This document shows, one piece after another, positions 28,801 to 64,000 of a stretch of 64,000 nucleotides of DNA. The stretch lies in the NCBI GenBank assembly GCA_008632985.1, contig QPGO01000088.1, positions 186,001 through 250,000 of the forward strand, given 5' to 3'. How positions within the stretch are numbered: the first letter of the stretch is position 1; each line of letters begins with the position of its first letter. Source of the DNA: Psammoneis japonica (lineage: Eukaryota). Both the position numbers and the translations under genes were made by a program. The notes beneath the pieces were generated by a model. That model searched no databases. It saw nothing but the letters and a program-made list of their open reading frames with translations, and was not told where the DNA came from.

Positions 28801-29894
28801 AAGGTGCTCCAACCTTGTGCACCTCCTTCTGTTTTGCACTGTTTTGGTGCACTGACCATGAGGCAGCTCCAAGCAATGCAAAGGCAAGAACAGCAACAAC
28901 AACGGCAGTGATTGCCGCTGCATCCAGTCCATCACCCAAACCGGCGCTGTTGAGCGATGAGCGTTGAAGGCACTCCAATGGTGGGTGATTTTTGTGTGTT
29001 TTCTCCACTGCGGTTCCAAGTAAAGTGCGCATGGCATTTAGTGTAGGGAGAATGGAAAAGCGCACTTTCACCGGCACGAAAGAGCCAAATTCCAAAATAA
29101 GTGGTCCCCGACGAAAGCAAGACGGAACCTCCCTGAGCGAGGCGGGCGGGCACCGCATGACATCAGCAGAGGTTCGCACACTCTACACAAAATGTGATAG
29201 TGAAACACCGTTGGTCTGCCCGGCAGTTTTCTTCTCTCTTTTGGACTGCGTCGTTGCACAAAAATCAAAAATCTGTTACATCACGATGATGCACAATAAT
29301 CGCCACAACGGAATCATCAGTGATTGGTGCGGGACCGAATGATGGCCATGGGTGAAGGAGAAGTGTAAAGAAACCCATCTGTGGAGCGTCGACACCGTCT
29401 GTTTCAGGCTGGTACTCCGTTCCATAGAGAAGATTCGAGCACTTCTCTTTCGCTTCATCATTCGAGATGGGACTAACGATGTCGGCGGAGCGACAAAAAG
29501 AGGGAACTGCTTCAGTTTCAATTTGTTAACCCGCACGACGCGATTGAATCCTTCTTTGTCCTTAATGCACCTTGAGCTCGATTCCAATGCTGATGGTTGT
29601 CTCTTGTCAATGGACTACGATGACTGTCGTAGCGCTTGCGACGTCGTTGCATACTTTGATGTCGTCGTTTTTGTTTTTGTACCACGCTGCTCCATTTCTT
29701 TTGGGTGTCTTCTCTTCAGCATTCCTTCCTCGCCTGGGTTCACGCTGGGGTATTCGTTACGGTATGCCCCAAGGCGCTTGTCGTCGATACGTGCTGGAAT
29801 ATTTCGGCGCTGATCGCCTGCGTATTTTTCCTATGGATTCGTCGTGTTGGAGTAAGAGCAGAATGCCGTTGACAAAGCCACTGGGGGGTTATTT

Positions 29895-32800
29895 GTGCCA
29901 TCTCAAGCAGTCTCTAATGAATTTACATGTACGGCCGAAGACGGATATGTGATCGTCACAGATGCAATACCGACACCGTCTCCAACACCAGTACCTTCAC
30001 AATCTCCAAGTGCCAGTCCAGCTCCGAGTACCACACCCTCCCAAGTACCAAGTGTAAGTCCGGCTCCAAGTGGTAGTCCATCACATTCAATAACTCCGCC
30101 GAGTAGCAGCCCCGCACTCAGTATGTCGCCGAGTAGTCCCCCGAGTGGCAGTCCAGTACCAAGCGCTAGTCCAAGTACAGCTCCATCGCAGCCAGCCAAC
30201 TGCACGCTTGAGGTACGTACATTAAAAAAGTGTGAGCATAAATTGTGAATTTTGTGAAAGGCTGACGCGTGTTTCTCGCTTGTTGTCATTTTGTTACAGG
30301 TTGAAATGGAATTTCTCATTGAGCACCCAGACCCCCAGGTCAGCGGATACACCAGCTTTACCTTTTCATACAATTGGAAGACCTGTGATGAAGCTGTAAA
30401 CTCTCAAGGAGATTCCAACAAGCGTATCGACGTATATGATCTCAATGGTGTCGATCCTCCAGCTGCTAACGAAAGTGCCTTCATAACCTGCAAGGGTTCG
30501 AGCAATGAGACACTCTATAACAGCACAGTTGACAGTGGCGATATATTTGAGTTGAATGGAACTGTCGACAGTGTCGAGTGCATCATATTCCGTGACATGG
30601 ATCAGGATGTAGTATATCAAACGATTAAGTTCGTGTCGTACAGTGAAAACTTCTTGCTCAAAGACGAGTTTGGAAGCTTGGTCCTGGAGAACGGCAGCAA
30701 TGGCCAAGGAGACTCGAAACAATGCCTTCAACAGGTGAAATCCGTCATTGACATAACTAATGCCGGAAGTACAACGCTGAACGTTACCAAAGCGGTGCAA
30801 AATGTGACGCAAGCCCCCCTCGGCTCTTCCAGTCTCACAAGTTTTCTTGATTCGATTGTTCCGACGGAAATGGTGGCTGGTGAAATGCGCACGATTGAAG
30901 TTCCGTACACAATTGATATTTGCATTGAAGCAAATTACATCGTGAGCGCTGAACTCGAAGCTGAAACAGTCTCTAATGAATTTACGTGTACGACCGAAGA
31001 CGGATATGTAATCGTCACAGATGCCATACCGACACCGTCTCCAACGCCAGTACCTTCACAATCGCCAAGTGCGAGTCCAGCACCGAGTACCACGCCCTCT
31101 GAGCTACCAAGTGCAAGTCTAGCCCCCAGTGGTAGTCCATCACACTCCACAACTCCGCCGAGTAGCAGCCCAGCACCGAGTAAGTCTCCGAGTAGTTCCC
31201 CGAGTGGCAGTCCAGCGCCAAGCGCCTCGCCTTCGGTAGAGCCCAGTAGCAGCCCTGCACCCAGTGACTTGCCATCAGCAAAACCAAGCAGCTGTCCAGC
31301 TCCGAGTACTACACCGACAGTTATGCCACGTATACCCCCAGCTCCTCCAACGTAGAACACCGAGTACAAGCCCTGCCCCCAGCTCGGCACCAAGCGACTA
31401 TCCCAGCAAAAGTCCAGCACCAGCTCAACTCCAAGTCAAGAACCATCAGCTAGCCCGGCTCCGAGCAACGAACCAACTCACACGACTCCACCACCAAGTC
31501 GTAGTCCTGCACCGAGTGAGACTTCCAGTGTATCTCCAAGTAATAGTCCGGCGCCAAGTAATTCGCCGAGTGAACAGCCCAGTGCAAGCACCGCCCCAAG
31601 CAACTCGCCAACGGATACGACGCCGCCACCAAGTGACCGGCTCCAGCGAAACCCCAGTTTAGCCCGATAGCAGCCGCACCAAGTCATCACCATCCTCGAC
31701 CTAGAGCAGTCCTGCACGAGTGATTCGCCGAGTGCATCGCCTACCGCAAGCTCTGCCCCAAGCACCTCACCAACGCATACGACGCCACCACCAAGTGTGA
31801 GCCCGGCTCCCAGCGACACACCCAGTTCAGCCCCAAGCAGCAGCCCGGCACCAAGCTCAACACCATCATCTCAACCTAGTACCAGTCCAGCGCCCAGTGA
31901 CTTGCTATCAGCAAAACCAAGCAGCAGTCCAGCTCCGAGTACTACACCGATAGTTATGCCACGTATACCCCCAGCTCCTCCGACGAGTGCTCCATCAAGC
32001 AGTCCTGCTCCAAGTGAAGCTCCGAGTAGAACACCGAGTACAAGCCCTGCCCCCGCTCGGCACCAAGCGACTCTCCCAGCAAAAGTCCAGCACAAAGCTC
32101 AACTCCAAGTCAAGAACCATCAGCTAGCCCGGCTCCGAGCAACGAACCAACTCACACGACTCCATCACCAAGTCGTAGTCCTGCACCGAGTGAGACTCCC
32201 AGTGTATCTCCAAGTAATAGTCCGGCGCCAAGTAATTCGCCGAGTCAACAGCCCAGTGCAAGCCTCGCCCCAAGCAACTCGCCAACGGATACGCCGCCGC
32301 CACCAAGTGTGAGTCCTGCTCCCAGTGCAGCTCCAAGCGCAAGCCCGGCCCCAAGCTTATCGCCTAGAACGGCTCCAAGTAAGAGTCCCTCTCCAAGTCA
32401 GTCACCATCAATGGCGCCAACACAAGATGTTTGCGACCTAGAAGTAAGCTTTGCAACGTTTCTTTGTTTTACTGCATGTGCCATGGTATTGTCCCCAGCT
32501 CAATAATGTATGTTCTGCTCCCAAAACGCGGCCACACAGGTTGAATTGTTGGAGTGCGTAGATAACAACGGCACCCAATGCGGGGAAATTCCACATCCGG
32601 ATTGTCAATGCAGAGGATACTCCAATCTGACGTGTACGTACAACTGGAGACCTTGTGAAAACTCGACACATTCACAAGGTGCAAATTGTGAATGCAGGGA
32701 TGTGTATCTTGAGAAAAACGCAACGCCTCCTGCCGGAGATGAAACTGTCCACATTAGCTGCTCCGACGCAAGTCCCACCAATGACACTCTGTTCAGTGGT

Positions 32801-35800
32801 ACGGTGAGCAGCGGCGACAAAATCGATATCAGCGGAGCACAAGGCATTGTTGTCTGTTTCATCGCAAAAGCCGACGACCTGGACTTTGTGTATCAGAGGA
32901 TACAATTCTTAACCGACGATGCCGATTTAATGCTCAAGGATGAGTTTGGCAGCCTGACACTCGAAAACTGTGATGACGGCACCAATTCGAACAACTGTCT
33001 TCAAATGGTCTTGTCGAAAGTCTTAATCACCAACGACGGACCCACAAATATCAACATCACGGAGGCTCTGCACACTGTGACGAAAGACAATAATACGCAA
33101 TCAGTCACAAACTTTCTCGGAGAGATTGACCGATCAGTGATAATTGCAGGTGACACCTGAATGGTTAAGGTGCCACATGAAATCGATATCTGTGTCGACG
33201 CAAAGTATATAGTCACGGCGTATGTCAAGGGTGAGACGGTTTCAACTGGCATCACATGCGAAGACGAGGACACGGACATGTTCGAGACAGATGAGAAAGT
33301 AACTCCAAAGCCTACGCCTGCACCGTCCCAGGCACCAAGTAGTAGCCCGGTTCCAAGTGAGTCTCCTTCCCGTGCACCAAGTGCAAGTCAGGTGCCGAGT
33401 GGTAGCCCATCACGCTCGACAAATCAGCCGAGTCGCAACCCTGCGCCCAGCGAGTCTCCCAGTAGTTCCCCGAGTGTGGCAGTCCAGCTCCAAGTGTGTC
33501 GCCTTCGGTAGAGCCCAGTAGCAGCCCAGCGCCTAGTGACTTGCCATCAGCAGAACCAAGCAGCAGTCCAGCTCCAAGCACTACACCGACAGTTATGCCA
33601 CGCATACCCCCAGCTCCTCCAACGAGTGCTCCATCAAGCAGTCCTGTTCCAAGTGAAGCTCCAAGTAGAAAACCGAGTACAAGCCCTGCTCCCAGTTCGA
33701 CACCAAGCGGTTCTCCTAGCGCAAGTCCAGGACCAAGCGCAACTCCGAGTCAAGAACCTTCTGCTAGCCCTGCTCCGAGCAACTCGCCGACGCACATAAC
33801 TGCAATTCCGAGCAAGAGTTTTTTGCCGAGTGCATCACCATCCTCTCGACCTAGTAGCAGTCCTGCACCGAGTGATTCGCCGAGTGCATCGCCTACCGCA
33901 AGCTCTGCCCCAAGCACCTCACCAACGCATACGACGCCGCCACCAAGTGTGAGCCCGGCTCCCAGCGAAACACCCAGTTTAGCCCCAAGTAGCAGCCCGG
34001 CACCAAGTTCATCACCATCCTCTCGACCTAGTAGCAGTCCTGCACCGAGTGATTCGCCGAGTGCATCGCCTACTGCAAGCTCTGCCCCAAGCACCTCACC
34101 AACGCATACGACGCCACCACCAAGTGTGAGCCCGGCTCCCAGCGACACACCCAGTTCAGCCCCAAGCAGCAGCCCGGCACCAAGCTCAACACCATCATCT
34201 CAACCTAGTACCAGTCCAGCGCCCAGTGACTTGCTATCAGCAAAACCAAGCAGCAGTCCAGCTCCGAGTACTACACCGATAGTTATGCCACGTATACCCC
34301 CAGCTCCTCCGACGAGTGCTCCATCAAGCAGTCCTGCTCCAAGTGAAGCTCCGAGTAGAACACCGAGTACAAGCCCTGCCCCCGCTCGGCACCAAGCGAC
34401 TCTCCCAGCAAAAGTCCAGCACAAAGCTCAACTCCAAGTCAAGAACCATCAGCTAGCCCGGCTACAATTCTTAACCGACGATGCCGATTTAATGCTCAAG
34501 GATGAGTTTGGCAGCCTGACACTCGAAAACTGTGATGACGGCACCATTTCGAACAACTGTCTTCAAATGGTCTTGTCGCTCTGCGCACTGTGACGAAAGA
34601 CAATAACACGCAATCAGTCACAGACTTTCTCGGAGAGATTAACCCAACAGTGATAATCGCCGGTGACACTCGAGTGGTTAAGGTGCCACATGAAATCGAC
34701 ATTTGTGTCGACGCAAAGTATGTGGTCACGGCGTACGTCAAGGGTGAGGCGGTTTCAACTCGCATCACATGCGAGGACGGGGACACCGACATGTTTGAAA
34801 CAGATGAGAAAGTAACTCCTAAGCCTGCGCCGGCACCGTGCCAGGCACCGAGTAGTAGTCTGGTTCCAAGCGAGTCTCTTTCCCGTGTGCCGAGTGCAAG
34901 TCCGGCGCCGAGTAGTAGCCCATCGCACTCGACAAATCCGCCGATTCGCAGTCCCGCACCCAGCGAGTCTCCGAGTCCTTCCCCGAGTGGTGGACCAGCG
35001 CCAAATGTCTCGCCTTCGGTAGAGCCCAGCAGCAGCCCTGCGCCTAGTGACTTGCCATCAGCAGAACCAAGCAGCAGTCCAGCTCCGAGTGCTGCACCGA
35101 CAGTTGTGTCACGGATGCCCCCAGCTCCTCCAACGAGTGCTCCATCAAGGAGTCCTGCTCCAAGTGATGCTCCGAATACGTAGAACACCGAGTGCAAGCC
35201 CTGCTCCCAGCTTGGCACCAAGCAACTCTCCGAGCGAAAGTCCAGCACCAAGCTCAACTCCAAGCCAAGAACCATCTGCCAGCCCGGCTCCAAGCAACGC
35301 ACCAACTCACACGACCCCACCACCAAGTCGCAGTCCTGCACCAAGTGAGACTCCCAGTGCATCTCCAAGCAGCAGTCCGGCGCCAAGTGATTCGCCGATT
35401 GAGTCACCAAGCGCAAGTCCTGTTCCAAGTTCTGTGCCGAGCAATGCTCCCAGCGCAAGTCCAGCACCAAGCAATGCACCAACACACACAACACTGCCTC
35501 CGAATTCGAGTCTGGCACCAAGCGAGGTGCCCAGTGCAGCTCCAAGTGGTGGCCCAGTGCCAAGTGATTAGCTGAGTGAATTTTCCAAGTGCAAGTCCTG
35601 CCCTGAGTTCTGCACCGAGCAATGCTCCCAGCGCAAGTCAAGCAACGAGTGACGCACCAACACACACAACACTGCCTCCAAGTTCGAGTCCGGCACCAAG
35701 CGAGGCACCCAGCGCAGCTCCAAGCAGCAGCCTGGCGCCAAGTGATTTTCGCCGAGTGAATCTCCAAGCGCAAGTCCTGCCCCGAGTTCTGCACCAAGCA

Positions 35801-38410
35801 ATGCTCCCAGCACAAGCCCAGCACCGAGCAATGCACCAACACACACAACACTGCCTCTGAGTTCAAGTCCAGCACCCATCGATGCTCCAAGTGGATCCCC
35901 AAGCAGCAGTCAGCTCCTGACGATGCACCAAGTGGATCCCCTGGCACAAGTCCTGCTCCGAGTTCTGAGTTCCGCGCCTGGCAATGCTCCCAGCACAAGT
36001 CCAGCACCGAGCAACACACCAATGCACACAACGCTGCCTCCAATTTCGAGTCCAGCTCTGAGTGCTTCACCCAGTGCAGCTCCAAGGAGCAGTCCGGCTC
36101 CAAGCAATGTGCCAAGCGGATCACCCAGTGCCAGTCCTGCTCCGAGCAATTCGCCATCGGTGACACCAAGCAAGAGCCCAGAACCCAGCAGCAATCCATC
36201 CGTGATTCCAAGTGCAAGTCCAGTGCCGAGTGCAGCACCTTCGTCATCGCCAAGTGCCAGCCCGGTTCCCAGCGATGCTCCGAGTCAAGAACCAACCACG
36301 CGAGAGTTCTGCAATGTCGAGGTGCGTTCATTCTACTTTGACTCATTCACTTTCGTTTGGCAAAGCATTCAGTGCTAACTCATGCCATTGCAGGTTGATT
36401 TGAGATGTGAAGCCCAAGATGAAAACAGAACAGACTGCAACAACATCCCGGTGCCCAATCCAGAATGCCAAGTTGTCCAAACTTGACCTTCAAATGTGGG
36501 TGGCAACCCTGCAACGAAACTGTGAACTCCCAAGGCAAACACTGTGAATGTCAAGATTTCTTTGATGTCATGCCACCAGGTGTTTTTGACGATGTCCTTG
36601 TCACGTGCAGTGGGCCAAATGGAGTCATCTTCAATGAAGCCATTTGTCCCGGCAAGACGATTGAACTCATCAATGACCCAAGTGTTGTCAACCCGATGCT
36701 GAATGACCAGCTTGGCAGCCTGACACTCAAGGGCTGCAACGGTGATCCTGACAACAACCCAAGTCAATGCCTTCACACTGCAACTCAATCATGGAAATTG
36801 AAACATTGGCACGGCAGCTCTGCAAATCACCAAAGCTGATCACATCCAAACAAAGGACGACTCATTCACGGAGACAATGACCAGTGTTCTGGATCAAATT
36901 AAAACAATCGCCGCTGTGCATGGGCCGCAGCTCACATCCAAGTTTCCACCCATCACAGCTGTGACGGATCTGTTGGATGTCAGCGTTCAAGTGGGATGCA
37001 CTGGTGCACTGACTCCTGTGGCCATTTTGGAACCTGTCACCTGGGCGGGTGTCATCATGCAACGAGCCATGTTGCACAACTTTGGACACATGCGATGCGT
37101 CATGTTGCCAAAGGGCAATGAAAACAAAAACAGCAGATTGCCACGGAATTGCTTGGTTGTGGTGAGATGAGCCGGCCGCGTGATTCCTCAGGTGGCAGGT
37201 GCAGTGTGTGGTGTGGATGGAAACAAGGCATCCACTGCCACAAGACAGAACGACTTCATTTGGTTGCATCCACCCACAAAACATGTCCGGCTTGTGGATT
37301 GTGAGTCAGTCACCACATTGGATGACACAGACAACGCATTGATTGGTCAAGTGTTTGGCTTGTCCACCACGAGCCGTCAAAGTGCATTGGCCCACGCCTT
37401 CTCGCAAGACGTGCTTGACATCACGGCTTGTTGGAAGCACGCATCCAACAACTCAGGGAGGCCAATTTGCTGAAATTTTCTCATGAAATGCAACGGAATC
37501 ATCGTCCTGTCTTTCCGACGCGTCTTGGATGTCTTTCAAAAATGCATCTACTGTCACACATGTGGATGCAATTGATGTGGATGAGTGGGCACCAACATGA
37601 CGAGTGCTCAAGGAGCAAATGAAGCGCGACAATGACACAACCCATTGTGCCACTTGTCAGGCCTTGTGAATCAAATTTGTGGCGGACTTGTCCCCCATCC
37701 TTTGAGTTCAGACCAGTCAACTTTTTCTGGTGCAAAGACCAGCCTTGGCTGGCACAGCCAAAACAGCAGGAATCAAGGGAATTGGACCAGTGTCTCGTCC
37801 TTGCTTGTCTCCTTTTCAAAAGACATTGGCTCGGTCAAGGCTGCACAAGACTTGGCAAAGACAATCGTTGTTCACGATGACAACAGTCCAATTCTTCAGC
37901 AACAGAAAGACCATGTCACGAGCAAGGATTTGCCACTTGCCAAACTTTCTGTGGCTTTTTGGGTTCTGTGCCCAATTTTCCACGACAAAAAGTTCAAGAA
38001 ATGGCTCGTGCAATGGGCACCAAGTCCATGCCAAGCAGCATCAGCAAATCCACCGGTCTTGTTGTTGCCAGAGAAGGCAGTGGGAAAAAGCTGGAAAAAG
38101 CCACAAACAGGGAGTTCACAAACAAAGCAACCATGGCAACATGAACATGTCCGGGCTGCCATCTGCATTCTTCAATGTCGAAATCCGTTGCACGTCACAG
38201 GAATCAAGGGCATCCAAACCAACGTCGTAAAGACTGAACTTGATGGATTTGTGTGAGGGAATCTCATTGCAAATGCAACGGTTCCCTTTGAAGTTGATGT
38301 TTGCATTGCCAATGCGCACCGCACACTGTCAAGGTCACAGTGGAAGTGACAACCAAATCGAGTCTTGAACCCTGTGAAGACACAGCCAATTACGAGACCA
38401 ATGCGGGAGG
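29895..38410 (+). pseudogene. mucin-like Ser/Pro/Thr-repeat protein with repeated Cys-containing domain (LKDEFGSLxLE motif); frameshifted, rearranged, 3' part hypermutated
   Basis: PSxSPAPS arrays alternate with homologous domains at ~30300, ~32540, ~34465 (partial) and ~36395; homologous introns 30213-30299, 32444-32539, 36322-36393; stops and frameshifts (e.g. TGA ~33158); 5' end not identified. Confidence 0.8.
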
Positions 38411-38499
38411 GTGCGGCATTTGTTGCAAACGATCGCTTGGCAGAACGAAACTTCGAAGTAGAGATTCCCTGTTCTTGTTGTTGTTGGAATCACTGTCCA

Positions 38500-41400
38500 T
38501 CCACAAAACATGTCTGCATGGAAAAAAGGCAGAGTTGAGTGACAGAGCCTGGTTGCATGGGCTGCTCGTGTGACATGATCCAAGACAGATGGAGTGGTGG
38601 CAATCTCTGCCATCTGCCCAAATGCAGCATTGCAGTTGGTGGGGAAAAGTTTGTGCTCATCCAGCAGCAAGACTCACACCAAGGAACTTGCTGAACAACC
38701 CTGAAACACCAGACTCCAGAATGCCAAGAGGCACAAGATGGTGCTGTGACCCTTGGTGCTGGGAGTGACTGGCTGCTGACCAGACATGAATGGCCAGCCC
38801 TTGGAGGACAAAACCATTGCCACTGGGGTGACCTCAAGGGAAGCTGCCACCACAGGGTGTGTGTGTGTGGGAGACCAAGCTGCAGCTGGGGGAGCCACTG
38901 GCAGAGATGGTGCTGTGGCTGCATCCAATGCTGGTCAGATGGCAACTGAACAGTGCACAGCTTGCTGAGGGAGGCAGGCCAGGCTGCCAGGTGCTGCAAA
39001 CCTGGTGAGTCGAACGCAGACCCCCCTGGCTGCAAACATTGGGCAGCCTTGCACCAAGATTGATGCAGGCTGGCTGCAGCCATCTGGTGTTGTGGCACAG
39101 TGTCTGCAGTTGGGTCAAAGGTTGGAGGTTGGAGGCACAGTGCACTTGGCAGCAGCTTGCAGTTGTTGGGTGGTGGAGGCAGGTGTGTGGAACCCCGGAG
39201 AGAAGCAGCAGCGCACATTGCCCAGAAATGAAGCATGAGCAGATGGGCCTGACTGAAAGGGGGGGATGAGGTGGCTGAGAGCTGCTGTGTGGCACAACAA
39301 GCTGCAAACTGCTGCACAAGACCATTGCCATCACTGTCTTCCCCTTTGCCATCACTGGCAATGTCCCCCATGCCAGTGAAGCCACAACCACCCATCTGAG
39401 CCTGCACATCCCTGTTGGTGACTGGTGAAGCAGAAGCAAGAAGGTTGTGGCCACTCCAAGCTGATGACCTTCAGCTGGCACTGCAGCAAAAAGAGGCAGT
39501 CAACCAATCCAAAAAGCAACAGATTCAGTGAAAAGCACTTGGGTGCCTAAAGCTCCCAAGCTGCAAGGGGGTGGTGGTGCCAGAGATCAAAACACTGCTC
39601 AGTTGGGTGTGTTTCAAAGCAGCTGTCCTCAAGGAATGTGCGTCCCCAGCCTTGCTCTCACTGTCAAGACATTGTGAGTGCAACCCTGCTTCAAGTTTGT
39701 TGAGAACACAACCCCAGCAGAGTTGAAAAGCAAGGTCATGATCCACCATTGCAACATCAGAAGAGGATGGAACAGTGGTTGTGGAGTCCTGCAGGAAGGG
39801 TTGCAACAATGAGGCTGCAGGCTGCACCTGAGGAATGAGGTCAATCAGAAATTCTGCTGGGAATGCGGACACTGCTGCAAAAAACAGCAGATGATCCTTC
39901 CAGGCTGCAAGCAACTGTGCTGAGTCCTTGCTCGTCACCTTGAGACTGGCCTGAAATTCTGTGAATGAGATGTGCTGCAACCAGATCTGTCCAGCCAGAA
40001 CCAGAAGGTTGAAGCAGGGAGGCATGGGGAAGATGCAGGGAAGGGCACACCAAAGCTTGGTGCCAGTTTGAAAATGCCCAACAAGGTGCTTGGAACTGGC
40101 AAATCCTCGCTGCAACACAATCTGCCAGAGCTGCCTTGCTCCAAAGAAGGGAGGCTGCTGGAGAGGCCGAGAGAGGACAAATGTCCACCACAGGAGAGCC
40201 ACCTGGGGTTGCTGGCCATGACAAAGCTCTGGATCCATCAAAGGGCCAGGCTGTGGCCATGTTGGCAAAGTGCATCAATGACACAGCAACCAGGCAAAAG
40301 AGAGAGAGGTGGGAATTGGCGTGTGGCATGCTGGAGCCAAAGTGTGCTCGTGCACCAGGCTTCTGGCAACTCAACCACTGCACCGGTCATGGTTGCACTG
40401 AGACTGGAAGCCACAGCAATGAATGGATCAGACCAGGTCACTGCTGTGTCTGCAGAAGCTGGGGCAGGATGCATGCTCAAGTGAGCAAGAGCAAGTGCCC
40501 TGTGCCACTGTCAAGGGATGCTTGAGCTGCACAACACATGGGTGGGTCATGCAGCTGAGCGCCATTGTCAGCAATGATGATTTGTGCATGAAGCGCTGCT
40601 GCAGTGTTGGCCAGACCTTTGGCTGTCACCAAAAGCCCCATGGCCATGGTGGCATCATTGGAGTCAAGGTCTGCACAAAGGCCACCCTGCTGTTTTGAAA
40701 TTTGAGCTGATCACGCGGGGACAGGAGTCCTCCAGGATGGCTGGAATTGGTCCTTCCAGGAGGAAGAAACCAGCAAGAAGGTGGAAAGAAGCCCATGACC
40801 ATGCTGTTCAGGGAAAGCGGTTGGTGCAGTGACCAATGCTGAAGGCAAAGCAGAGCCACCAACAGCGGCCCCATGAGTCATCATGGCCATGGCAATGACA
40901 GAGCCATGGACAGAGCAATGAAGGGAGAATGCTTTGCAAGTAAAAACTCACTCTCAACTCGTCAACATGCACAACACAATGTCAATGAAAGAAAAGACTG
41001 AGCTTGCTGCAGCTCAAGAGGTGCTTGCAGCTGTGTGTGCTGCTTTTGTGGCACTCTGAGATGCCACAGAAGTGGCAACATGACCCCCCCCCCCCGCTCA
41101 TGCAGCAGGAGGCACAGACCACTGTGCATCCTGTTGGTCTCTGATCTGCACCAGCAAACTTCCATTTGAGCAGTTGCACCAGCACAATGTGCAGTGTGAA
41201 GATCATTTCCGTTCAGTCAAAAAATGAGAATAAAAAACACATCCATCCACTTTTGCAATTTGCCATGAGCACACCTGTTGTGATGTTTGGCACCACCCAG
41301 TGCAGTCAGCACTCCTGCAGCCAGCAGCACCAGACCATGTGCCTCAAAACCACCACCCATGAGAACACACACTCATGAGAAAAATTGTGCAAAAGAGCTC

Positions 41401-44400
41401 ATTTTGTGGTTTGCCACAAGATCCAAAAAGGAAACATGTGCCAGCAACTGGATTTGGGGCTAATGAGCCACACCTGCTGCACATTTAAACTGATTTGATC
41501 ACTGTCAAAAGTTCTTCCATTTTCTCTAAACTCTCAACCAAAAACACAAACACAGGGAGCACAGCATCATTGGCAGCTGATCTGATGAATCAAAGAAGTG
41601 CCACCACAGCTTTCACTTTGCAACGGCAGGGCAACAAGGCACTCCCAATGAGTGCCTTGCAAGATTGTGACATTGTTTTGCTCTGCTCTTGCACAACAAA
41701 AATGTTGTGCAAAAATGCACAGCACAGTTTCTGAAATGCTCTTTCCTTGAAACTCTCAAGACTGGCCCTGGCCCAGTTCTGAAATCATGCACACCCACAT
41801 CTGCATGGTCAAGTGCATCCACAAAACATGAAGAGGTGCAAGTTGGCCACAGGGAATCCAAGTTTCTTTCCTCCTTGGCTGCACCCACATTCAACTGGTT
41901 TGCAAAGCCAAGCTGTTTCTTTGAGTGGTTGACAAGGAGATGTTTCTTGCTCAGCAGCAGTGGCATCAGATGAGAGAAAGAAGATGACTGTGTCAAGCTG
42001 CATTGTCAATGCATGTTGTGGGTGACACAACAACAAATGCTGATGCTGGCACCACTTGCTGGCTCAAGAGCTGGACACATGATGATGTGAGCAGCCAACA
42101 GAAGCTGTGCAATGGATGCTGCATCAATCTCTGTTGATGTGAGCAGCTTTCATTGCATTTGGAGTTGGTGGCTGCAACTCATTGTGCTCATTTTCATTGC
42201 AGCAGCATTGCTCAAAGCATTCAAAAAGGTGCAGCTGACAATGAAGCAGCAAGTCAAACGTCTGATGTGCCCTGTTGTTCGAGACATGCAGAAGAAAAGA
42301 CAGCTTTGCATTCTGGGCTTGTTTTGATTGAACAGCTAGAAGCAGTGCTGCAAATTGCCAGCTCCATTTGAAGCAACCAACATCTTCATTGGGCACCTTG
42401 AAGGACAACAACTGGTTTGTTTGGTGCAAGCCAAGATGACAGTGTCATTTTTGTCTCAGCTTGCCAAGGTCATGCTGTTGTGATGTGTGCTGTGGTGCAA
42501 CAAAAAATGCAGGGAGAAAATGTTAGATGCAAGAGATTCAATGGACATGATGAGACATTTCAAAATTTTTGAAAGCACCGGTGCAACAACACTCAATTTT
42601 AAAAATTTTGAATGCAGTGGAACACCAGAATTTGTGTGCCGCACTCATTTAACTGCTCCCCCAAAGTTTGTGCACTTCCACCACCTGTGCACAAATTGAA
42701 TTGTTGCTTGGTGGCAGGAAAAATCTTGGATGTTTCTCTGCAGGAAACTGTGCCTTTGATTGAGAAGAATCCTGAAAAACATCAGTGCTTGACATTGTCA
42801 TCAGATCTGAGACAGATGTTGGCTCCAGCATCACCTTCTTCCTGCTCCTGCTTTTGTGGCCTCTCTCTCCTGGCTTGAAGCAAACAACTCTTTCCCCTGC
42901 TGTCTTGCTGACCTGTTGCTGCCTCTCTGCCTTTGCCATGGTGTGCTTTGAGAAACAAAAAGCAAATGCTTGGTGTGAGGCACACAGGAGCCACAAGACG
43001 GCATCCACAACAAAAGACAATCACTTGATGGAATGCATCAAAATGTTGCTCTTTTCTCATTTCACTGCACTCTTCCACTGTGATGACCCACTTGTTGATC
43101 AAGAGTTTCCCAACTGGCCTGCCACTTGGGATTTTTGTTTTTTGCTGTTTGTGAGCCCCGCATGATTTTGCTTCAAAGCAGCAGCTGTGTTGAGAGAATT
43201 GGGAGCCATTTGCATTTTGGACAAAGACTTGCAGTCAACCATGTCAAGGAGACAATCCATGCTGCCAGATCAAGACTGTTGAAAAAACAGTTGATTGAAT
43301 CTTGTTGTGGGAAAGATTGGTCAAGATTGTCCTCATCGCAGTGCTTTGTTTTTGGTCTCAGCCATTGTCTTTTGCATCCTCAACTCCAAGGGTTCCTTTG
43401 ACAAAAAGGTTTGGTTGCTGCTCACAAACCCAATGGACAGCATGAAGAAATTGTGCCTCTGCAATTGATTGTTTGTTTGTTGCAATTTGAAGCCTGAGAA
43501 TGTCTTGCTGACCAAGGAGGAGTCTGCTGGCTCTCTCAACATCACGTTGTTTGAATTTGGTGGCTCAGCTTGCTTTGGAAGATGCGTGGCTCACACCTGC
43601 ATCATTGAAGCCTGAGAACATCTTGCTGACCAAGAAGGAGTCTGGCTCAAGCAACCTCAAGTCAATTGACATTAGTTGGCTTGCTTTGAAGGACACACAG
43701 CTCATGTCTACACTCGATCTCTGTTTTGCCACAGCCCAGAAGTTTTTCTGCTGCTCCATGGTCCATGGCTCCTGTGCATGGTGGGCTGACTCTGGCTGCT
43801 GTTGACATGCGGTCCATGGATGCAGCGTGGTGCAGCAGAGCTGTCACTCAAATTGCCTGCAAACCTGGTGCTCATGAGCACAACCTGCTGAGGTGAAATT
43901 GTGAAACAAATGGGCCCATTCCAGACAAAATGCTCAGAGAAGGGCAGGTGTCATTCTTTGTGCTTTGCACTTTTGTTGAGTGGAGCACATGCACTTGATT
44001 TTGCTCCCCACTTGTTTTTGTTCAGTGCCAAATTGTCCAAGCACTTTTTTAAACTCATTTCCAAGTCAAGCACTGCCTCAACTCTGACATCTTTGTCTCC
44101 ACCAAAGCCATCATGGTGCATGAAGACACAGCAAAAAGAGCATCTCAATGGCCTCTCAGAAGAAGAAATCCAAAAGACAGATGGGCTGCAGAAGCCAGAG
44201 AAGCAACCAACCAATCAACAATGCATGCCATCTGCAGCCACACAGCTGGGTGATCATCACAAAGCTCTCATGTTGCACCCAGTTGCTTCACTTGAATGAG
44301 GTTTTTGCTGTCAAGGTCCAGTGTTGCATTTGTTTGCTTGTTCACATTTGGCTGACAAATTTGTTGGCTGAAACAGAACTCCTTCTTGACCACTCCAAAG

Positions 44401-45830
44401 ATGGATCTTCTTGAGCTTGACTGCGCAGCATCCAGAACAAGAACTTGCAAGCTTTTCTGGACTGACTGTTGGAAGAACCATTCTCCACTCTTTTTTGACA
44501 CTCACATGCTGCCACTGACAGTGCTGGTTTGCTTGATTGTTTCAGATGCCAGTTGTTCAATGCTCCAGAAGAGACACTCTGACACTTGCAGCGGTGGTGC
44601 TGCATTGGCTGTTTTCTGTTTTTTGTTTTTCAGCAATCTTGATCTGCAGGCCTGATGCTCTGCAGCACACTCACCAATCCATCTTGAGCACCAGAACCTG
44701 ACACATGTGATGCCAAATCCAACAACCCATTCAATTCTGCCTTGCATGCAAGAAGTTTGTTCAGTGCTTGTCTCTTCTTTCTCATTCTCTTCAGCCACCA
44801 GTGCTGCTGCATTTTTTGACTTGAAAATTGGTGCAAGTGCTGATGATGATCAACAACAGGTTTCAGAGGTGGCCCAGATCTGGTGTTCTCTCATGCCAGC
44901 ATGCATTCTGTCTGGCACAAACCAGCTCTGAGACAGCGGCCTTCTCACACTTCATTTGTGACAAATCATTGCATGAATGGGGGGGCCCAGAAATGTGCCT
45001 TTTGCACCAACACTTTGCTGCCACAGCTTCAACTTGAGTGCTGAAAAGACAAGTGGTGCTTGTGCACAACATGCTGACATTTGAAATGCCTGGACAAAAA
45101 ACCAATGCAAAACCACAGACAAACTTCTCCACTTGCTGCAACAGCCAAAAGTCAGCCTTTGCAAACACCCCTGCATCAGCATGTCCATGGTCCGCACATT
45201 GTCCGCATTGCACGAAACCGCAAGAACATTGTTCTGTGCTGCTCCTGGCAATCAACCAAGGCAGTCATTTGACACCTGACTTGACCCAACAGGTCAAAGC
45301 ACACTTCAATGATTGTGTCGGGCAGTTTCACAGTGTCAAACAACCTGAGATGGCTTTCACCACAAGACAAACCCCGGCAAGAGGCACACATTTTTGGTCA
45401 TGAAAATTGCCACGTTGTAGAAAAGTGCAACACAGTTTTCATTGGAATTGATGTGGAATTCCACAGGGATGCAGTTTGGAGCACCATCATTTGAACAATG
45501 ATGTTCATGCCGAGTGAGGCATTTGACGTGCTGGCTCCAATTTCACGCATCACTGCCTTGTGGTGGTGAGTGGCCACCACAGGAGCTCCAGCTCAAAAGC
45601 TTGAGAGCTCATTTTCTGCCCCGCAACCACCAGCCATTTGTGCAACAAAGAGCATGGCTGGGAGCAAGGTGGAGAGGAGTGCATTTCACTCAATCGTTGC
45701 CAAAAGAAAGCGACGCAAATTTTTGGGCAAGCACTTCAACACAAGCTTTGTGACAGAGCACACCAATTGAAATGCAGGTGCACACAATCCTGCTCCATCA
45801 GTGCAGCATGTTGACCCCTGTTTTCTTCAT
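38500..45830. mobile_element. heavily mutated repeat/relic block, unclassifiable
   Basis: TpA and CpG both nearly absent, TG/CA saturated, no intact ORF or termini recognised; TE origin inferred from composition only. Confidence 0.5.
43481..43670 (+). pseudogene. two tandem protein-kinase subdomain VIb-VII fragments
   Basis: CNLKPENVLLTKEESAGSLNITLFEFG and LKPENILLTKKESGSSNLKSID resemble RDLKPENILL...DFG. Confidence 0.6.
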
Positions 45831-46256
45831 TCATTAGACATCTTTCTCAAATGTGCGGACATCTGCGATTTTTGCCAACCATCGCTCGAACACAACCGGT
45901 CTCAAGAAAAAAGCCATGTTTGAGTTTGTCGTATTTATTCCGATCTGTATACATTTCAATGAATCCAGTGACGACGTTGAATTTAAAAAGTAGCTCATAA
46001 CCTAGTTCAATTCGAACCACCACATTTTGTGGACTCTGATTGGCTGTTGCTCGTCGAGCCTTCTCATCCAAGCTTCTGTTACGTAGATTCACGTAGATAA
46101 TGTACCAGCGTTGGTTCCGCGTGTTATTTGCGCTCAACGTGCCGATCCGCAAAATCTGGCTGGTGTCAAAAGATCGTCTCACACATCCTGCTGAATTCCT
46201 TCCCATTGTTCTGCCAATCCACTTTTAGCTTCTTGTCGTTTGTGTTTTGCTCAACC

Positions 46257-49200
46257 ATGCGTTTCGAGACGTTGCTGTTCACTGGCCTCGTGGCATGGTT
46301 GGGAAACCATTGTGTGACGGCGTTTGCTCCAGCCACTGTCTCTAAGTTGAGCAAGGCTACCAATAAAAGATTCGCAAATAGCAGAATTCTGTATCCACTT
46401 TCTTCGGCAGTGGAAGATTTCACCACTGAAGATAAGCCCTCCACTTCTTCTCCAGTCTCACCCGTGTCCATCTCCAAAGTTTTGGATTTGACAAAGCCGA
46501 TTCCATACGAAGAACTGACGATTGGTGTCGTAAAGGAAACATTCAAGGGGGAAAATCGTGTCTCGGCTACTCCAGAAAGTATCGCTCCTCTCGTCAAGGG
46601 TGGATTCAAAGTTATTGTCCAGAAGGGAGGTGCGTATTATAAGTGTAGAGGCTGATTTGCATGTCACTGTATGATTTGCTTTCATCATAATTTCATAATA
46701 TGCGTCTCGCTCATCCTTTTTCTGTATGATACTGGCAACTGGCATGCACAGCTGGAGAAAAGGCTTCCTTTGGCGACGAGGCATATGAAGAAGCCGGTGC
46801 TACGATTGTTTCCGCCGAACAGCTCTATGCGCAAGCAGACATTATTACTCGAATCCGTCCTCCCGAGGGTGACGACATTGCCAAACTTACAGGCAAAACT
46901 CTAGTGGGTATGGTTTCTCCGGCGCTCAATCCAGAACTCTACGAGCAATTGACCAAACAAAATACCAATGTGTTGGCTTTGGATTGCGTACCACGCATGT
47001 TGAGTCGGGCTCAGGCCTTTGACGTTCTTTCGTCTCAAACAAATATTGCTGGATACCGTGCAGTGATTGAGGCGGCAGAGCAATTTCCACGATTCTTTGC
47101 CGGGCAAATGACGGCTGCTGGCAAGGTGCCTCCGGCCAAGGTTCTAGTGGTGAGTTTGCATTATTCTTTTAGTGTTTGAAACTGTCTTTTTCTCGATACT
47201 CATGCCTTGTCTACTTCATGGCTCGTTTTTAAAAAAGCTTGGAGTTGGTGTCGCTGGACTTGCCGCCATTCAGACGGCAAAAAACATGGGCGCAATTGTA
47301 AGGGCCTTTGATGTGAGACCAGTAACCAAGGAGCAGGTGGAATCCATGGGCGCCACGTTCCTTGAAGTGGACTACGAAGAAGACGGAAGTGGTCAAGGAG
47401 GATACGCCAAGGAAATGTCGGATGGTTTCAAAAAGGCACAAGCGGCCATGATGCTTCAGCAAGCCAAGGAGTGCGATATCATCATTACCACGGCTCTCAT
47501 TCCCGGACGCAAGGCACCCACCTTGGTGGATCAAGAAATGCTTAGCGTGATGAAGCCTGGTTCTGTTTGTGTCGATTTGGCCGCTGCCAATGGTGGAAAT
47601 GTGATGCAGACTGTTCCGGACGAAGTTATCGAGACTGATAATGGTGTCAAGATTATTGGTTACACCGACTTGCCATCGCGATTGGCATCCACGGCGAGTA
47701 ACCTGGTGAGTTTTCATCTCTTTTTTTTTCATCGTGCCTGTCGCTAGTTCTCCTCAGCTTCAACTGACAGCCTCTACTTTTGCGCTCGCACACCAGTTTG
47801 GAAACAATATTGCCAAGTTTGTACTCAGTATCGGACCTCAGACTACCAAGGAAAAGGGTTTCTTCCAGATTGATATGGAAGATGACGCAGTGCAGAACAT
47901 GTTGATCTCCTACAATGGAGAAGCCCGTTGGCCGGACAAGATCACTCCGTACCAACTTCCACCTCCGCCACCATCGGAAGCCAAGGAAGAGGAAGAAATG
48001 ACCGAGGAAGAAATCATGGCTCTTGCGGATGCCAAGCAAAAGGATGTATTTGTCAAAAACACGGGAATTGCGTCACTCTTGGCTGCTGCCCTCCTTGCCT
48101 TTGGATTTACCACGGACTCTCCCGAGGCCGTCTCCTTGATGTCTACCTTTGCCCTTGCCGGGCTTGCCGGTTACCAGGTTGTTTGGGGTGTAGCACCAGC
48201 TCTTCATTCCCCCTTGATGGCTGTAACGAATGCCATTTCTGGAATGACCGCTATTGGTGGAATGATTCTGCTTGGGCACAATGTCGAAGCGGGTGCTGGA
48301 CTGATTCCAAACTCCCCGTCGCATTGGATGGGAGCAATTGCCACGGCCCTTTCTTTTGTCAACATTGCTGGTGGATTCCTTGTTTCTGGAAAGATGCTCG
48401 ACCTTTTCCGACGCCCAACGGATCCCAAGGAGTACTTTGAGCTTTACGGCATCCCCGCGTCTCTCCTTATTGCCGGTATAGCAGCATCTGCCTTTTTGGG
48501 TATCGGAGACTTGTCCAGTGTTTCTGGCTCCGTTGCGATTGCTTCCTCTATTTGCTGTATTGCTGCAATTGCAGGTCTTGCCAACCAAGAAACCGCCAGG
48601 ACAGGAAACGTTTTGGGAATGGCTGGTGTGGCCTTTGGTCTCGCCTCAACCACGGCTGATATGTCCATTGCTGGGGCTGGTACTGCTGCCTTTGAACAGG
48701 TTGGCTTGTTGGGTGGACTTGGAGCGGGTGTCGGTGCTGTAGTGGCGTCGGGTGTCGGGCCAACTGAACTGCCTCAAACCGTTGCCGCATTCCACTCTTT
48801 GGTTGGTTTGGCTGCAATGGCTGGCGCCGCTGGTGAATACTTTGGAAGTTCTGGTGACCTTTCTGCCGGAACACTTACAGCCATTTACCTTGCGATCTTT
48901 ATTGGTGGTATTACCGCTACAGGTTCGATGATTGCCTACGGAAAGCTTGCAGCGTTGCTCGATTCCAAGGCCCTTAGTTTACCAGGAAGGGATGCACTCA
49001 ATGTCGGTATGCTGTCGGTTTGTGCTCTGGGCATGGCTGCATTCCTCAATCCTGATCTGGCCACTAGCGTTACCAGCATGGACCCAGAAACTCTGAGACT
49101 CGCCAGTCTCGGGGTGGTTGGAGTTGTTTCCTCTCTTCTTGGACTTCACTTAACGGCCAGTATTGGCGGAGCTGATATGCCTGTCGTTATTACTGTTCTT

Positions 49201-61183: not shown

Positions 61184-62395
61184 ATGAAGAAACAGATCGT
61201 CGCCGCTTTCCTTGGAGCGGTTTGTGCTTCTGCGTTTGCACCCTCTGCTTTTGTTTCGTCAAAGAGATATGGTAAACATGCTAACGTGGCTTCCAAGCTT
61301 CAAATGGCGCTTGAAGACGGACAAGTCCCACTAGTCGTCGGTGTTGCCGCTGACTCTGGATGTGGAAAATCTACTTTTATGCGTCGACTTACCTCCATCT
61401 TTGGTGGAGACGTCGTCGGACCTCTTGGTGGTGGATTCGACAACGGTGGATGGGAAACGAATACCCTTGTTTCCAACCTAACCACGGTCATTTGCCTTGA
61501 TGACTACCATCTCAACGACCGCGAAGGGCGAAAAATTACTAAACGCACTGCCCTCGACACCAAAGAGAACAACTTCGATTTGATGTATGAACAACTCAAA
61601 GAGCTTAAGAGTGGCAAAACTATTACTAAACCCATTTACAACCATGTGAATGGAACTCTTGACGAACCTGAGAAGGTGGAAGCGACACCCATCATCATTA
61701 TCGAAGGACTCCACCCCATGCACGACAAGCGTGTTCGTGATCTTCTCGACTTTTCTCTTTATCTTGATATATCCGACGAGGTCAAGCTCAACTGGAAGAT
61801 TCAGCGTGATATGGAAGAGCGTGGTCACTCTCTTGAATCTATTCTCCAGTCTATCGAAGCACGTAAGCCTGATTTCGACGCGTACATTGCTCCTCAGAAG
61901 GAATTCGCCGACATGATAATTGAAGTCCTCCCCACCCAGCTTGACGAGGATGACAAAAAGACTCTGCGCGTGCGATGTATCCAGAAGGAGGGAATTGAAA
62001 ACTTCAGCCCCTGTTATCTTTTTGACGAAGGATCAACTGTTGAATGGAGTCCATGCGGAAAGAAGTTGGCTTGCTCATACCCTGGAATTAAGTTTGCATC
62101 GGGCCCAGACGCCTACTTCGGAAATGAGGTACAGATTCTTGAAATGGACGGAACTTTCGATAACATTCAAGAGATGGTCTATGTGGAATCATTTTTGAGC
62201 GAATCTTCGACAAAGTTTTACGGTGAGCTGACGCAAGCTATGCTTGCTCTGGCTGATGCTCCGGGCAACGATAACGGAACTGGCTTAATGCAAACTCTCG
62301 CAGCTTTTGCCATTAGGGAACTCTATGAGAGGAAAACGGCGGCCATGAAGCTTGCAAAGTTTGATTCAATGATGAAGAAGGAGATGTTAAGATAG
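61184..62395 (+). CDS. PRK: phosphoribulokinase, plastid-targeted (copy 1, with C-terminal Cys pair)
   Basis: ASAFAP presequence; GVAADSGCGKSTF, VICLDDYH, IEGLHP, WKIQRDM.ERGH, PCGKKLACSYPG. Confidence 0.97.
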   Translation: MKKQIVAAFLGAVCASAFAPSAFVSSKRYGKHANVASKLQMALEDGQVPLVVGVAADSGCGKSTFMRRLTSIFGGDVVGPLGGGFDNGGWETNTLVSNLTTVICLDDYHLNDREGRKITKRTALDTKENNFDLMYEQLKELKSGKTITKPIYNHVNGTLDEPEKVEATPIIIIEGLHPMHDKRVRDLLDFSLYLDISDEVKLNWKIQRDMEERGHSLESILQSIEARKPDFDAYIAPQKEFADMIIEVLPTQLDEDDKKTLRVRCIQKEGIENFSPCYLFDEGSTVEWSPCGKKLACSYPGIKFASGPDAYFGNEVQILEMDGTFDNIQEMVYVESFLSESSTKFYGELTQAMLALADAPGNDNGTGLMQTLAAFAIRELYERKTAAMKLAKFDSMMKKEMLR

Positions 62396-62972: not shown

Positions 62973-64000
62973 ATGAAGTTTGCTTGCATCGCCGCTTTCG
63001 GAGCCGCCACGGTTTCCGCTTTCACCCCCTCGGCATTCATGCCTGCCAACAAGCTCCGTGCTGTTGCCCCGGCCTCCAGCTCAAGCTTGAACATGGCGCT
63101 CAAGGATGGTCAAGTGCCCATTGTTATTGGAGTTGCTGCTGATTCTGGATGCGGAAAGTCGACTTTCATGCGTCGCCTTACCTCTATCTTTGGTGGGGAT
63201 GTCGTTGGACCTCTCGGGGGTGGATTCGACAACGGTGGATGGGAAACTAACACCCTTGTTTCTGATCTTACCACCGTTATCTGCCTTGATGACTACCATC
63301 TCAACGACCGTGAGGGCCGTAAAGTCACCAAGCGCACTGCCCTCGACACCGAAGAGAACAACTTCGATTTGATGTTCGAACAAGTCAAGGCCCTGAAAGA
63401 AGGCAAGACTATCAAGAAGCCTATTTACAACCATGTAAATGGAACCCTTGACGAACCCGAGACCGTCGAGCCCACCCCCATCATCATCTTCGAAGGTCTT
63501 CACCCCATGCACGACGAGCGCGTCCGTGACCTTCTTGACTTCTCCCTTTACCTTGATATCTCTGACGAGGTCAAGCTCAACTGGAAGATCCAGCGTGATA
63601 TGGAAGAGCGTGGACACTCTCTTGAGTCCATCCTCGAGTCTATCGAAGCCCGCAAGCCCGATTTTGACGCCTACATTGCTCCTCAAAAGAAGTTCGCCGA
63701 CCTTGTCATCGAAGTGCTCCCCACCCAGCTCGATGAGGAAGACAAGAAGACTCTTCGCGTTCGTTGCGTCCAGAAGGAAGGAGTTGCCGACTTTAGCCCC
63801 TGCTACCTCTTCGACGAGGGATCCAAGATTGAGTGGACTCCTTCTGCCGAGAAGCTTTCTTCCCCTGCTCCAGGAATTAAGCTGGCCTACGGTCCTGAGG
63901 AATTTTATGGCCAGCCTGTTTCTGTTCTTGAGATGGATGGAACTTTCGATAACATCCAACAGCTTGTCTACGTTGAATCTCAATTGAGCAACACCTCCAC
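62973..64000 (+). CDS. PRK: phosphoribulokinase, plastid-targeted (copy 2, runs off window)
   Basis: MKFACIAAFGAATVSAFTP presequence then the same PRK motifs; absent from the ORF track because no stop lies in the window. Confidence 0.96.
   Translation, partial: MKFACIAAFGAATVSAFTPSAFMPANKLRAVAPASSSSLNMALKDGQVPIVIGVAADSGCGKSTFMRRLTSIFGGDVVGPLGGGFDNGGWETNTLVSDLTTVICLDDYHLNDREGRKVTKRTALDTEENNFDLMFEQVKALKEGKTIKKPIYNHVNGTLDEPETVEPTPIIIFEGLHPMHDERVRDLLDFSLYLDISDEVKLNWKIQRDMEERGHSLESILESIEARKPDFDAYIAPQKKFADLVIEVLPTQLDEEDKKTLRVRCVQKEGVADFSPCYLFDEGSKIEWTPSAEKLSSPAPGIKLAYGPEEFYGQPVSVLEMDGTFDNIQQLVYVESQLSNTS

Follow-up and report, generated by a model that had tools for sequence, protein, structure and literature searches.

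In a 64,000-nucleotide window of the Psammoneis japonica genome (assembly GCA_008632985.1, contig QPGO01000088.1, positions 186,001 to 250,000 of the forward strand), a broken copy of a host gene built of Ser/Pro repeats and DUF7467 domains is divided by a sharp edge near 35.03 kb. TA dinucleotides are largely intact in front of this edge, and behind it nearly all of them have become CA or TG. The target is chosen by chromosome position; probably, a silenced block that is defined by position and has a sharp edge came to include 3.3 kb of DNA derived from the host. The window (G000:C89:186001-250000) belongs to a genome of 91.4 Mb in 597 contigs; C18, C127, C148, C173 and similar labels are other contigs of this genome, G000. 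Gene islands with 23-56 TA/kb alternate in the window with blocks that have 0-9 TA/kb, and the finding is located at the left edge of the block at ~35-45.9 kb.

TA and CG changes were counted in pairwise alignments with the paralogs on C18 and C127 as reference, dropping sites within two columns of a gap; 31353-31874 lies outside the alignment. Only 3 of 107 reference TA are kept in 35061-38400, where 87 are now CA or TG and one change runs in reverse (87 vs 1, p = 6e-25). Of the other outcomes, about five that read "GA" reflect differences between repeat types. The front part (30159-34595) keeps 129 of 149 reference TA, with 10 forward and 14 reverse changes. The conversion extends to every component of the rear part: 35025-36908 keeps one of 62 C18 TA (26 are CA and 23 are TG), an inserted ligase fragment keeps 2 of 41, and the tail of the third domain keeps none of 5. 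CG has become TG or CA at 57 of 113 sites in 35025-36908, and CpG loss amounts to 53% of the 178 CpG in 35061-38400 and to more than 80% beyond 38.5 kb. The core of the block (38401-45700) has 2.1 TA/kb and 7.7 CG/kb. An earlier, sequence-only reading of this DNA had described TpA as essentially gone after ~35.2 kb, and indeed 3 TA (1.8/kb) are left in 35201-36900.

Comparison between copies demonstrates the direction of these changes and their independence. A second converted copy on C148 shares CA or TG with the window at 31 of 46 C18 TA columns, with like outcomes at 18 and different outcomes at 13. Because 13 of the 31 shared sites differ in outcome, the two copies were hit independently from an ancestral TA, which settles the direction. 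The outgroup copy on C173 is alignable over only part of this stretch, so that many of the 46 columns fall outside it; at 14 columns it has TA, and there the window has TG (7), CA (6) or TA (1). Three tandem 177-base units also have mixed outcomes at all three ancestral TA that they share. The polarity from TA to TG or CA that was proposed earlier is thereby upheld, and the alternative of an ancestral TG fails on the 87:1 ratio, both paralogous copies and the tandem units.

The individual changes on which that polarity was first based are present in the sequence. The 33-mers at 31305 and 35088 differ by four TAY>TGY changes (Y, C or T) at 35090, 35093, 35105 and 35116. The intron donors GTACGT (30213) and GTGCGT (36322) are not an orthologous pair, but C18 has GTACGT at the 36322 column. 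Likewise, the contrast between domain motifs YNW and CGW compares nonorthologous units; it does contain a TAC to TGT change, although the ancestral motif is YGW, as in C18, and not YNW.

The mutation is specific for TA. Per-base A>G change in the block reaches 41% in TA (89/217), compared with 5.3% in AA (22/417), 6.3% in CA (31/491) and 4.2% in GA (17/403). C>T change affects 97 of 380 C in CG and 2.7-4.5% elsewhere (2.7% for CpA>TpA), and background changes are raised inside the block. Whether A or T is the target is indistinguishable from sequence because TA is palindromic. At asymmetric sites, the strand with A before a pyrimidine was hit 34 times versus 15 (p = 0.009), and inclusion of C148 gives 45 versus 21 in favor of TAY (p = 0.004). 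TAY, suggested earlier as the target, is therefore a 2:1 preference and not a rule.

Polymerase eta-type error-prone synthesis leaves A>G changes at WA (W, A or T). Repair synthesis of this kind around decaying methyl-CpG, with no dedicated TA enzyme, could give TA and CG loss their common edge and elevate background changes in the block. It is hardly credible as the source, however: AA is not favored over CA or GA, strand-coordinated bursts show no significant clustering (51 of 86 vs 43.8 expected, p = 0.074-0.098), and TA was lost without CG loss at 1-7 kb.

The edge itself is a sharp step and not a long gradient. Fitted to the 197 TA sites of 31875-38400, a step at 35030 (from 0.12 up to 0.97) has an Akaike information criterion (AIC) of 111, versus 133 for a two-parameter logistic. 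A sigmoid between plateaus fits best with 10-90% widths of 0.4-0.9 kb, gaining 0.6-1.4 log-likelihood units over the step for one extra parameter, and wider sigmoids lose 2.7 units at 1.3 kb and 5.2 units at 1.8 kb. No slope is detected within the plateaus for TA (p = 0.29, 0.25) or CG (p = 0.48, 0.63). CpG loss, which is unsaturated, rises from 8% to 55% in one step at 35120-35220 and then stays flat until CG falls again at 38.5 kb, the end of the gene-derived DNA. Ancestral TA still occurs at 35045 and, next to a 4-base insertion, at 35181. The dependence on position noticed earlier is thus a step between flat plateaus, and the gradient proposed over 33.2-36.9 kb is not supported, since neither plateau slopes and slopes longer than ~1.3 kb lose at least 2.7 log-likelihood units. 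The other block edges in the window are each confined to one or two 200-base bins. The right TA edge of the block falls at 45785-45930, and here (45785-46260) the block stops a few hundred bases short of a gene that, from its translation, we take to be transhydrogenase-like.

A short leak outside the step is possible. The multiple alignment of the edge zone (34596-35060) has 11 TA kept, 6 converted and 2 reverse changes, and the pairwise count has 8 forward versus 4 reverse. Outside TA and CG, divergence of the unit in this zone is 8.5-9.8%. At strict consensus sites, A>G or T>C changes affect 5 of 33 TA bases versus 14 of 160 other A/T (Fisher p = 0.20), and a shoulder of up to ~0.9 kb is compatible with the fits but inseparable from background. 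Three motif changes cited earlier from this zone, GATATC (33185) to GACATT (34698), TATATA (33206) to TATGTG (34719) and CCTACG (33311) to CCTGCG (34824), are all present, but TA is not significantly in excess over other A/T there. The thinning of TpA reported from ~34.6 kb does not show in the raw density, which is 33.4 TA/kb in 33160-34595 and 30.1 in 34596-35060. What may be plus-strand A>G changes are also common outside TA in the unit at 34585-34992 (for instance at 34623, 34674, 34749, 34775 and 34780).

If the mutator leaked from the relic block and faded with distance, as fungal repeat-induced point mutation (RIP) does in flanking single-copy DNA, then the 6 of 17 ancestral TA converted in the edge zone, the slightly better fit of the 0.4-0.9 kb sigmoid and the lower CG loss just inside the edge (5/15 in 35061-35380 vs 48-60% deeper in) could be its traces, and TA saturation could mask a slope. 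This explanation is improbable. The excess in the edge zone is not significant, the sigmoid fit took in two sites whose CA is common to the front copy, and unsaturated CG is flat across 3.3 kb. Conversion also stands at 97% at a distance of ~5.5 kb from the first multicopy relic; these relics, with 52 matches elsewhere at 66-85%, start at ~40.5 kb.

Position remains as the determinant because sequence, duplication and selection are excluded. Sequence is not the trigger, since the same DNA is TA-normal at C18 and C127. Duplication is not the trigger, since a broken piece on C173 is TA-normal and tandem C18 units that are 97-98% identical keep their TA, as does an exact repeat in the window (31788-32134 and 34117-34463), in which 347 of 347 bases are identical, a private frameshift included. 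This repeat is either a very recent duplication or a misassembly. Selection is not the cause: for TA whose T is the third codon base, so that T>C seldom alters the protein, the front retains 49 of 56 and the rear none of 43. A mutator that acted over the whole copy, with purifying selection preserving TA in a functional front, might be argued from the long open frames kept there and from front indels that may be assembly errors, but it is very improbable given the silent sites and a copy that lacks the first exon of the C18 gene.

The affected DNA at 29.9-38.4 kb is a gene copy with PF24269 matches; a protein atlas gave no usable match for its DUF7467-type domain. Its TA-normal relative on C18 (104.1-90.3 kb, minus strand) has long open frames, the first of 918 residues, and a single frameshift. 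The window copy has a dispersed repeat at its head in place of that first frame, a stop at 33158-33160, small indels and deletions of 49 and 72 bases, the latter after 36688 in the converted rear part together with frameshifts, and it ends at 38404. On direct reading, 31640-31720 looks like a noisy consensus, with many single-base losses relative to its twin, and some of the front-part indels are possibly assembly errors. The insert at 36909-38265 is a fragment of the NAD-dependent DNA ligase gene of C127 (81-87% identity), with its middle (37485-37739) inverted; the parent gene is intact at G000:C127:107.2-109.9 kb with Pfam ligase domains present. The copy is thus, by these comparisons, a dead chimera split by an equally converted ligase fragment. 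The "host gene" of the sequence-only reading is correct as to host origin but not as to a gene, given the missing first frame, the dispersed repeat ahead of it, the ligase insert and the truncation. Because conversion is as complete in the insert as on either side of it, breakage probably preceded most of the conversion, which probably hit a copy that was already dead. C18 was considered as the other haplotype of this locus and rejected, as no flanks are in common within C18:50001-130000 (80 kb).

The dispersed repeat of ~300 bases (29605-29906) recurs at other loci (L087, L095, L102), and different pieces of the same Ser/Pro gene follow it at four loci, those on C173, C199 and C1 among them. 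The arrangement resembles a gene-capturing element or a shared 5' exon. The segment 29030-29910 has at least 50 matches (40 of 73 candidates scored), and the listed copies of the repeat lie in TA-rich patches, in a search that favors unconverted copies. A further partial copy of the first domain, 96% identical and inverted in part, is at a contig end (L048, G000:C523:1-1473).

Short-read contigs from run X1 match the converted state with no differences at 35828-36167 and 36885-37130, and another bridges the ligase-insert junction without differences. An assembly artifact is ruled out for the stretches covered by X1. One X1 contig spans 34593-35069 with 6 differences (at least 90% likeness). 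X1 lacks the TA at 34820 and that at 35569, either of which may be a private variant or an error. Runs X2 and X3 contain next to none of the window's words. X1 also contains a second version of the chimeric stretch at 37400-38350, of similar depth and ~6% different, with discordant TA and CG outcomes. One of its contigs, with 17 differences and 6 gaps, runs across the inversion break; among the 40 of 202 differences listed, this version has TG for CA at 37422 and CA for TG at 37586. This version may be the other homolog, missing from the assembly.

In the mechanism that we favor, a TpA-specific A:T>G:C mutator would act on DNA where it lies, within sharply bounded chromosome blocks. A Ser/Pro-rich gene copy, duplicated and already broken, would have come to adjoin an old repeat block, and the silenced block would have taken over the rear 3.3 kb of this copy (35.05-38.4 kb) together with the ligase insert, stopping within a few hundred bases near 35.03-35.2 kb. 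Inside the block each TA would receive a single hit, on one strand or the other, until ~97% had been lost; A before C or T would be favored 2:1, and roughly half of the CpG would meanwhile have decayed. CpG loss of about one-half in the gene-derived part, compared with a far greater loss in the core, suggests that the gene-derived DNA joined the block later. We infer from this an order of events in which the block extended from its older core onto the copy. A Pfam search of nine frames in 37.6-43.2 kb found no match.

Several points weigh against this mechanism. That the block is methylated or heterochromatic is a presumption, as is the heterochromatin spreading proposed in the sequence-only reading, to which the edge that CpG decay shares with TA loss speaks indirectly. 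A Copia-like block at 1-7 kb has lost TA (observed/expected ~0.1) and kept CG (~1), so CG decay is not required, and co-location of the two losses is no proof that methylation guides the mutator. The best matches of the candidate ADAT2-like and TadA-like genes are ordinary tRNA enzymes. The comparison with X1 draws on 40 of its 202 differences. Finally, background divergence from C18 outside TA and CG is 0.7-3.2% in 31875-34595 versus 3.9-11% behind, and because the front is closer to C18 than the rear, the front may have been overwritten later.

Such an overwrite would make the edge a recombination junction: the rear would have been converted first, as part of the block, and unequal crossing-over or gene conversion among the Ser/Pro repeats would afterward have attached TA-intact DNA to it or replaced its front. 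Outside TA and CG the front is 97-99% like C18 and the rear 89-96%, and 38 changes in 827 columns behind the edge are private to the window. The 347-base identity implies an array recently rearranged or misassembled, and a crossover within the Ser/Pro repeats would be scarless. We nevertheless consider a junction unlikely. Divergence jumps at ~34596, but TA loss begins only ~450 bases later, and the intervening zone has the highest divergence but retains most of its TA. No donor closer than 81-83% exists for this zone among 8 of 8 candidates, an X1 contig covers it, and the unit is collinear with the first C18 repeat type across the edge.

For the chemistry of the mutator, deamination of A in DNA by a TadA/ADAT-type enzyme is an even call, and it is ranked first because TadA-type enzymes prefer U or T before A. 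Modification of T is distinctly less likely, some other chemistry is less likely again, and an error-prone polymerase has the smallest share of the four. The genome has nine PF00383 matches, including an ADAT2-like gene (G000:C26:119851) that carries HxE, PCxxC and Asn, and a TadA-like gene (C38:7368) with Asp at what we take to be the column of E. coli D108. Given this Asp and a signal-like start, the latter is probably an organellar tRNA enzyme. A search of the genome for TET/JBP gave no matches, and its control likewise matched nowhere. The genome also has 27 PF00145 cytosine methyltransferase matches, some of them clustered (L108 and G000:C297, C10) and some with stops, as if borne by mobile elements.

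More tentatively, we propose that diatoms may carry a chromatin-guided DNA adenine editor that would convert TpA wherever a silenced domain reaches, host-derived DNA included, and independently in each copy or homolog. Such domains would grow in jumps to fixed sharp borders, and TpA loss and CpG loss could then serve as a fast and a slow clock, preserving in the sequence how far past silencing reached and how long ago.

Features of the gene copy and the adjoining block, in window coordinates
Feature	Position	Strand	Remarks
Dispersed repeat heading the copy in place of the C18 first exon	29605..29906	+	TA intact
TA-intact front of Ser/Pro-repeat gene copy with DUF7467 domains	30159..34595	+	129/149 reference TA kept; PF24269
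Intron donor GTACGT, TA intact	30213..30218	+	
Edge zone: old diverged domain-plus-repeat unit, most TA kept	34596..35060	+	Weak leakage possible
Edge of the mutated block	35030..35220	.	TA step ~35030; CG step 35120-35220
Converted rear of gene copy: repeats, intron, third domain	35061..36908	+	
Intron donor GTGCGT, derived from GTACGT	36322..36327	+	C18 has GTACGT at this column
Insert: part of the C127 NAD-dependent DNA ligase gene, with inverted middle (37485-37739); conversion as in the flanks	36909..38265	+	
Resumed tail of third domain, end of copy	38243..38404	+	0/5 TA kept
Older core of the block, TA and CG nearly gone	38500..45900	.	Multicopy repeat relics from ~40.5 kb

Elsewhere in the window, 61294-62190 and 63082-63979 form a tandem gene pair (80% identical) that, from the translation, is presumably phosphoribulokinase-like. 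Two window proteins start with a signal peptide and what we take to be an ASAFAP-like motif.

Three known systems bear comparison with this block. Diatom CG methylation is DNMT5-dependent and, in the part of the published account considered here, forms transposon islands with repressive histone marks (PMC9998398). The block resembles these isolated silenced islands, which would account for the CG>TG/CA half of its changes but leave TA>CA/TG unaccounted for; no DNMT5 was identified among the PF00145 matches. RIP leakage, as partly covered in one report (PMC2973834), reaches single-copy DNA in Leptosphaeria maculans and Neurospora with a gradient over distance. Here, too, dinucleotide-specific transitions in repeat-rich blocks reach adjoining genes that are not transposons. 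However, what is described of RIP is C>T change at CpA, which raises TpA, whereas here TpA is destroyed and CpA>TpA stays at background. RIP also follows duplication, and in P. japonica near-identical and identical repeats keep their TA; and its leakage declines with distance, whereas conversion here has no slope over 3.3 kb and is compatible with a shoulder of less than 0.9 kb.

The closest likeness is to the hypermutation of giant-virus and virophage sequences integrated in the genome of Bigelowiella natans, for which ADAT2 is the enzyme proposed (Mettrop et al., bioRxiv 10.64898/2026.01.13.699255). According to the main text of that preprint, 231 of 302 nuclear mutations fall in two viral regions, nearly all of them TpA>TpG/CpA, at an ongoing rate ~1000 times background in some lines only. 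The main text makes no mention of diatoms, boundaries, spreading, gradients, flanks or context, and its supplements may bear on context and edges. It is also the only report that we found in literature mostly outside subscription journals, where no paper turned up on TpA depletion or hypermutation in diatoms. Both systems have TpA>TpG/CpA on both strands with both outcomes, A>G/T>C restricted to TpA, confinement to regions amid an otherwise normal genome, and clusters of windows poor in TpA and rich in CpA and TpG. In B. natans a live rate is measured, whereas the P. japonica block is a fossil record, with a TAY preference and a sharp edge measured here. TpA loss is nearly complete here (~97%), whereas the B. 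natans virus region keeps 3.3% TpA. The preprint's main text describes almost no G:C>A:T change, unlike the CpG loss here, but the time scales differ and this deserves little weight.

The P. japonica signature matches TpA hypermutation in B. natans but departs from its foreign-DNA feature, the target here being derived from two nuclear genes (C18 and C127) and not viral or otherwise foreign. Should the process extend to working genes, Tyr codons, stop codons and splice signals close to silenced blocks would be lost. As intact twins serve for comparison, the guidance of the enzyme can be tested at a single border that measures a few hundred bases. The sole report of this signature that we found reads it as defense against foreign DNA, whereas here pieces of two ordinary nuclear genes are rewritten by position.

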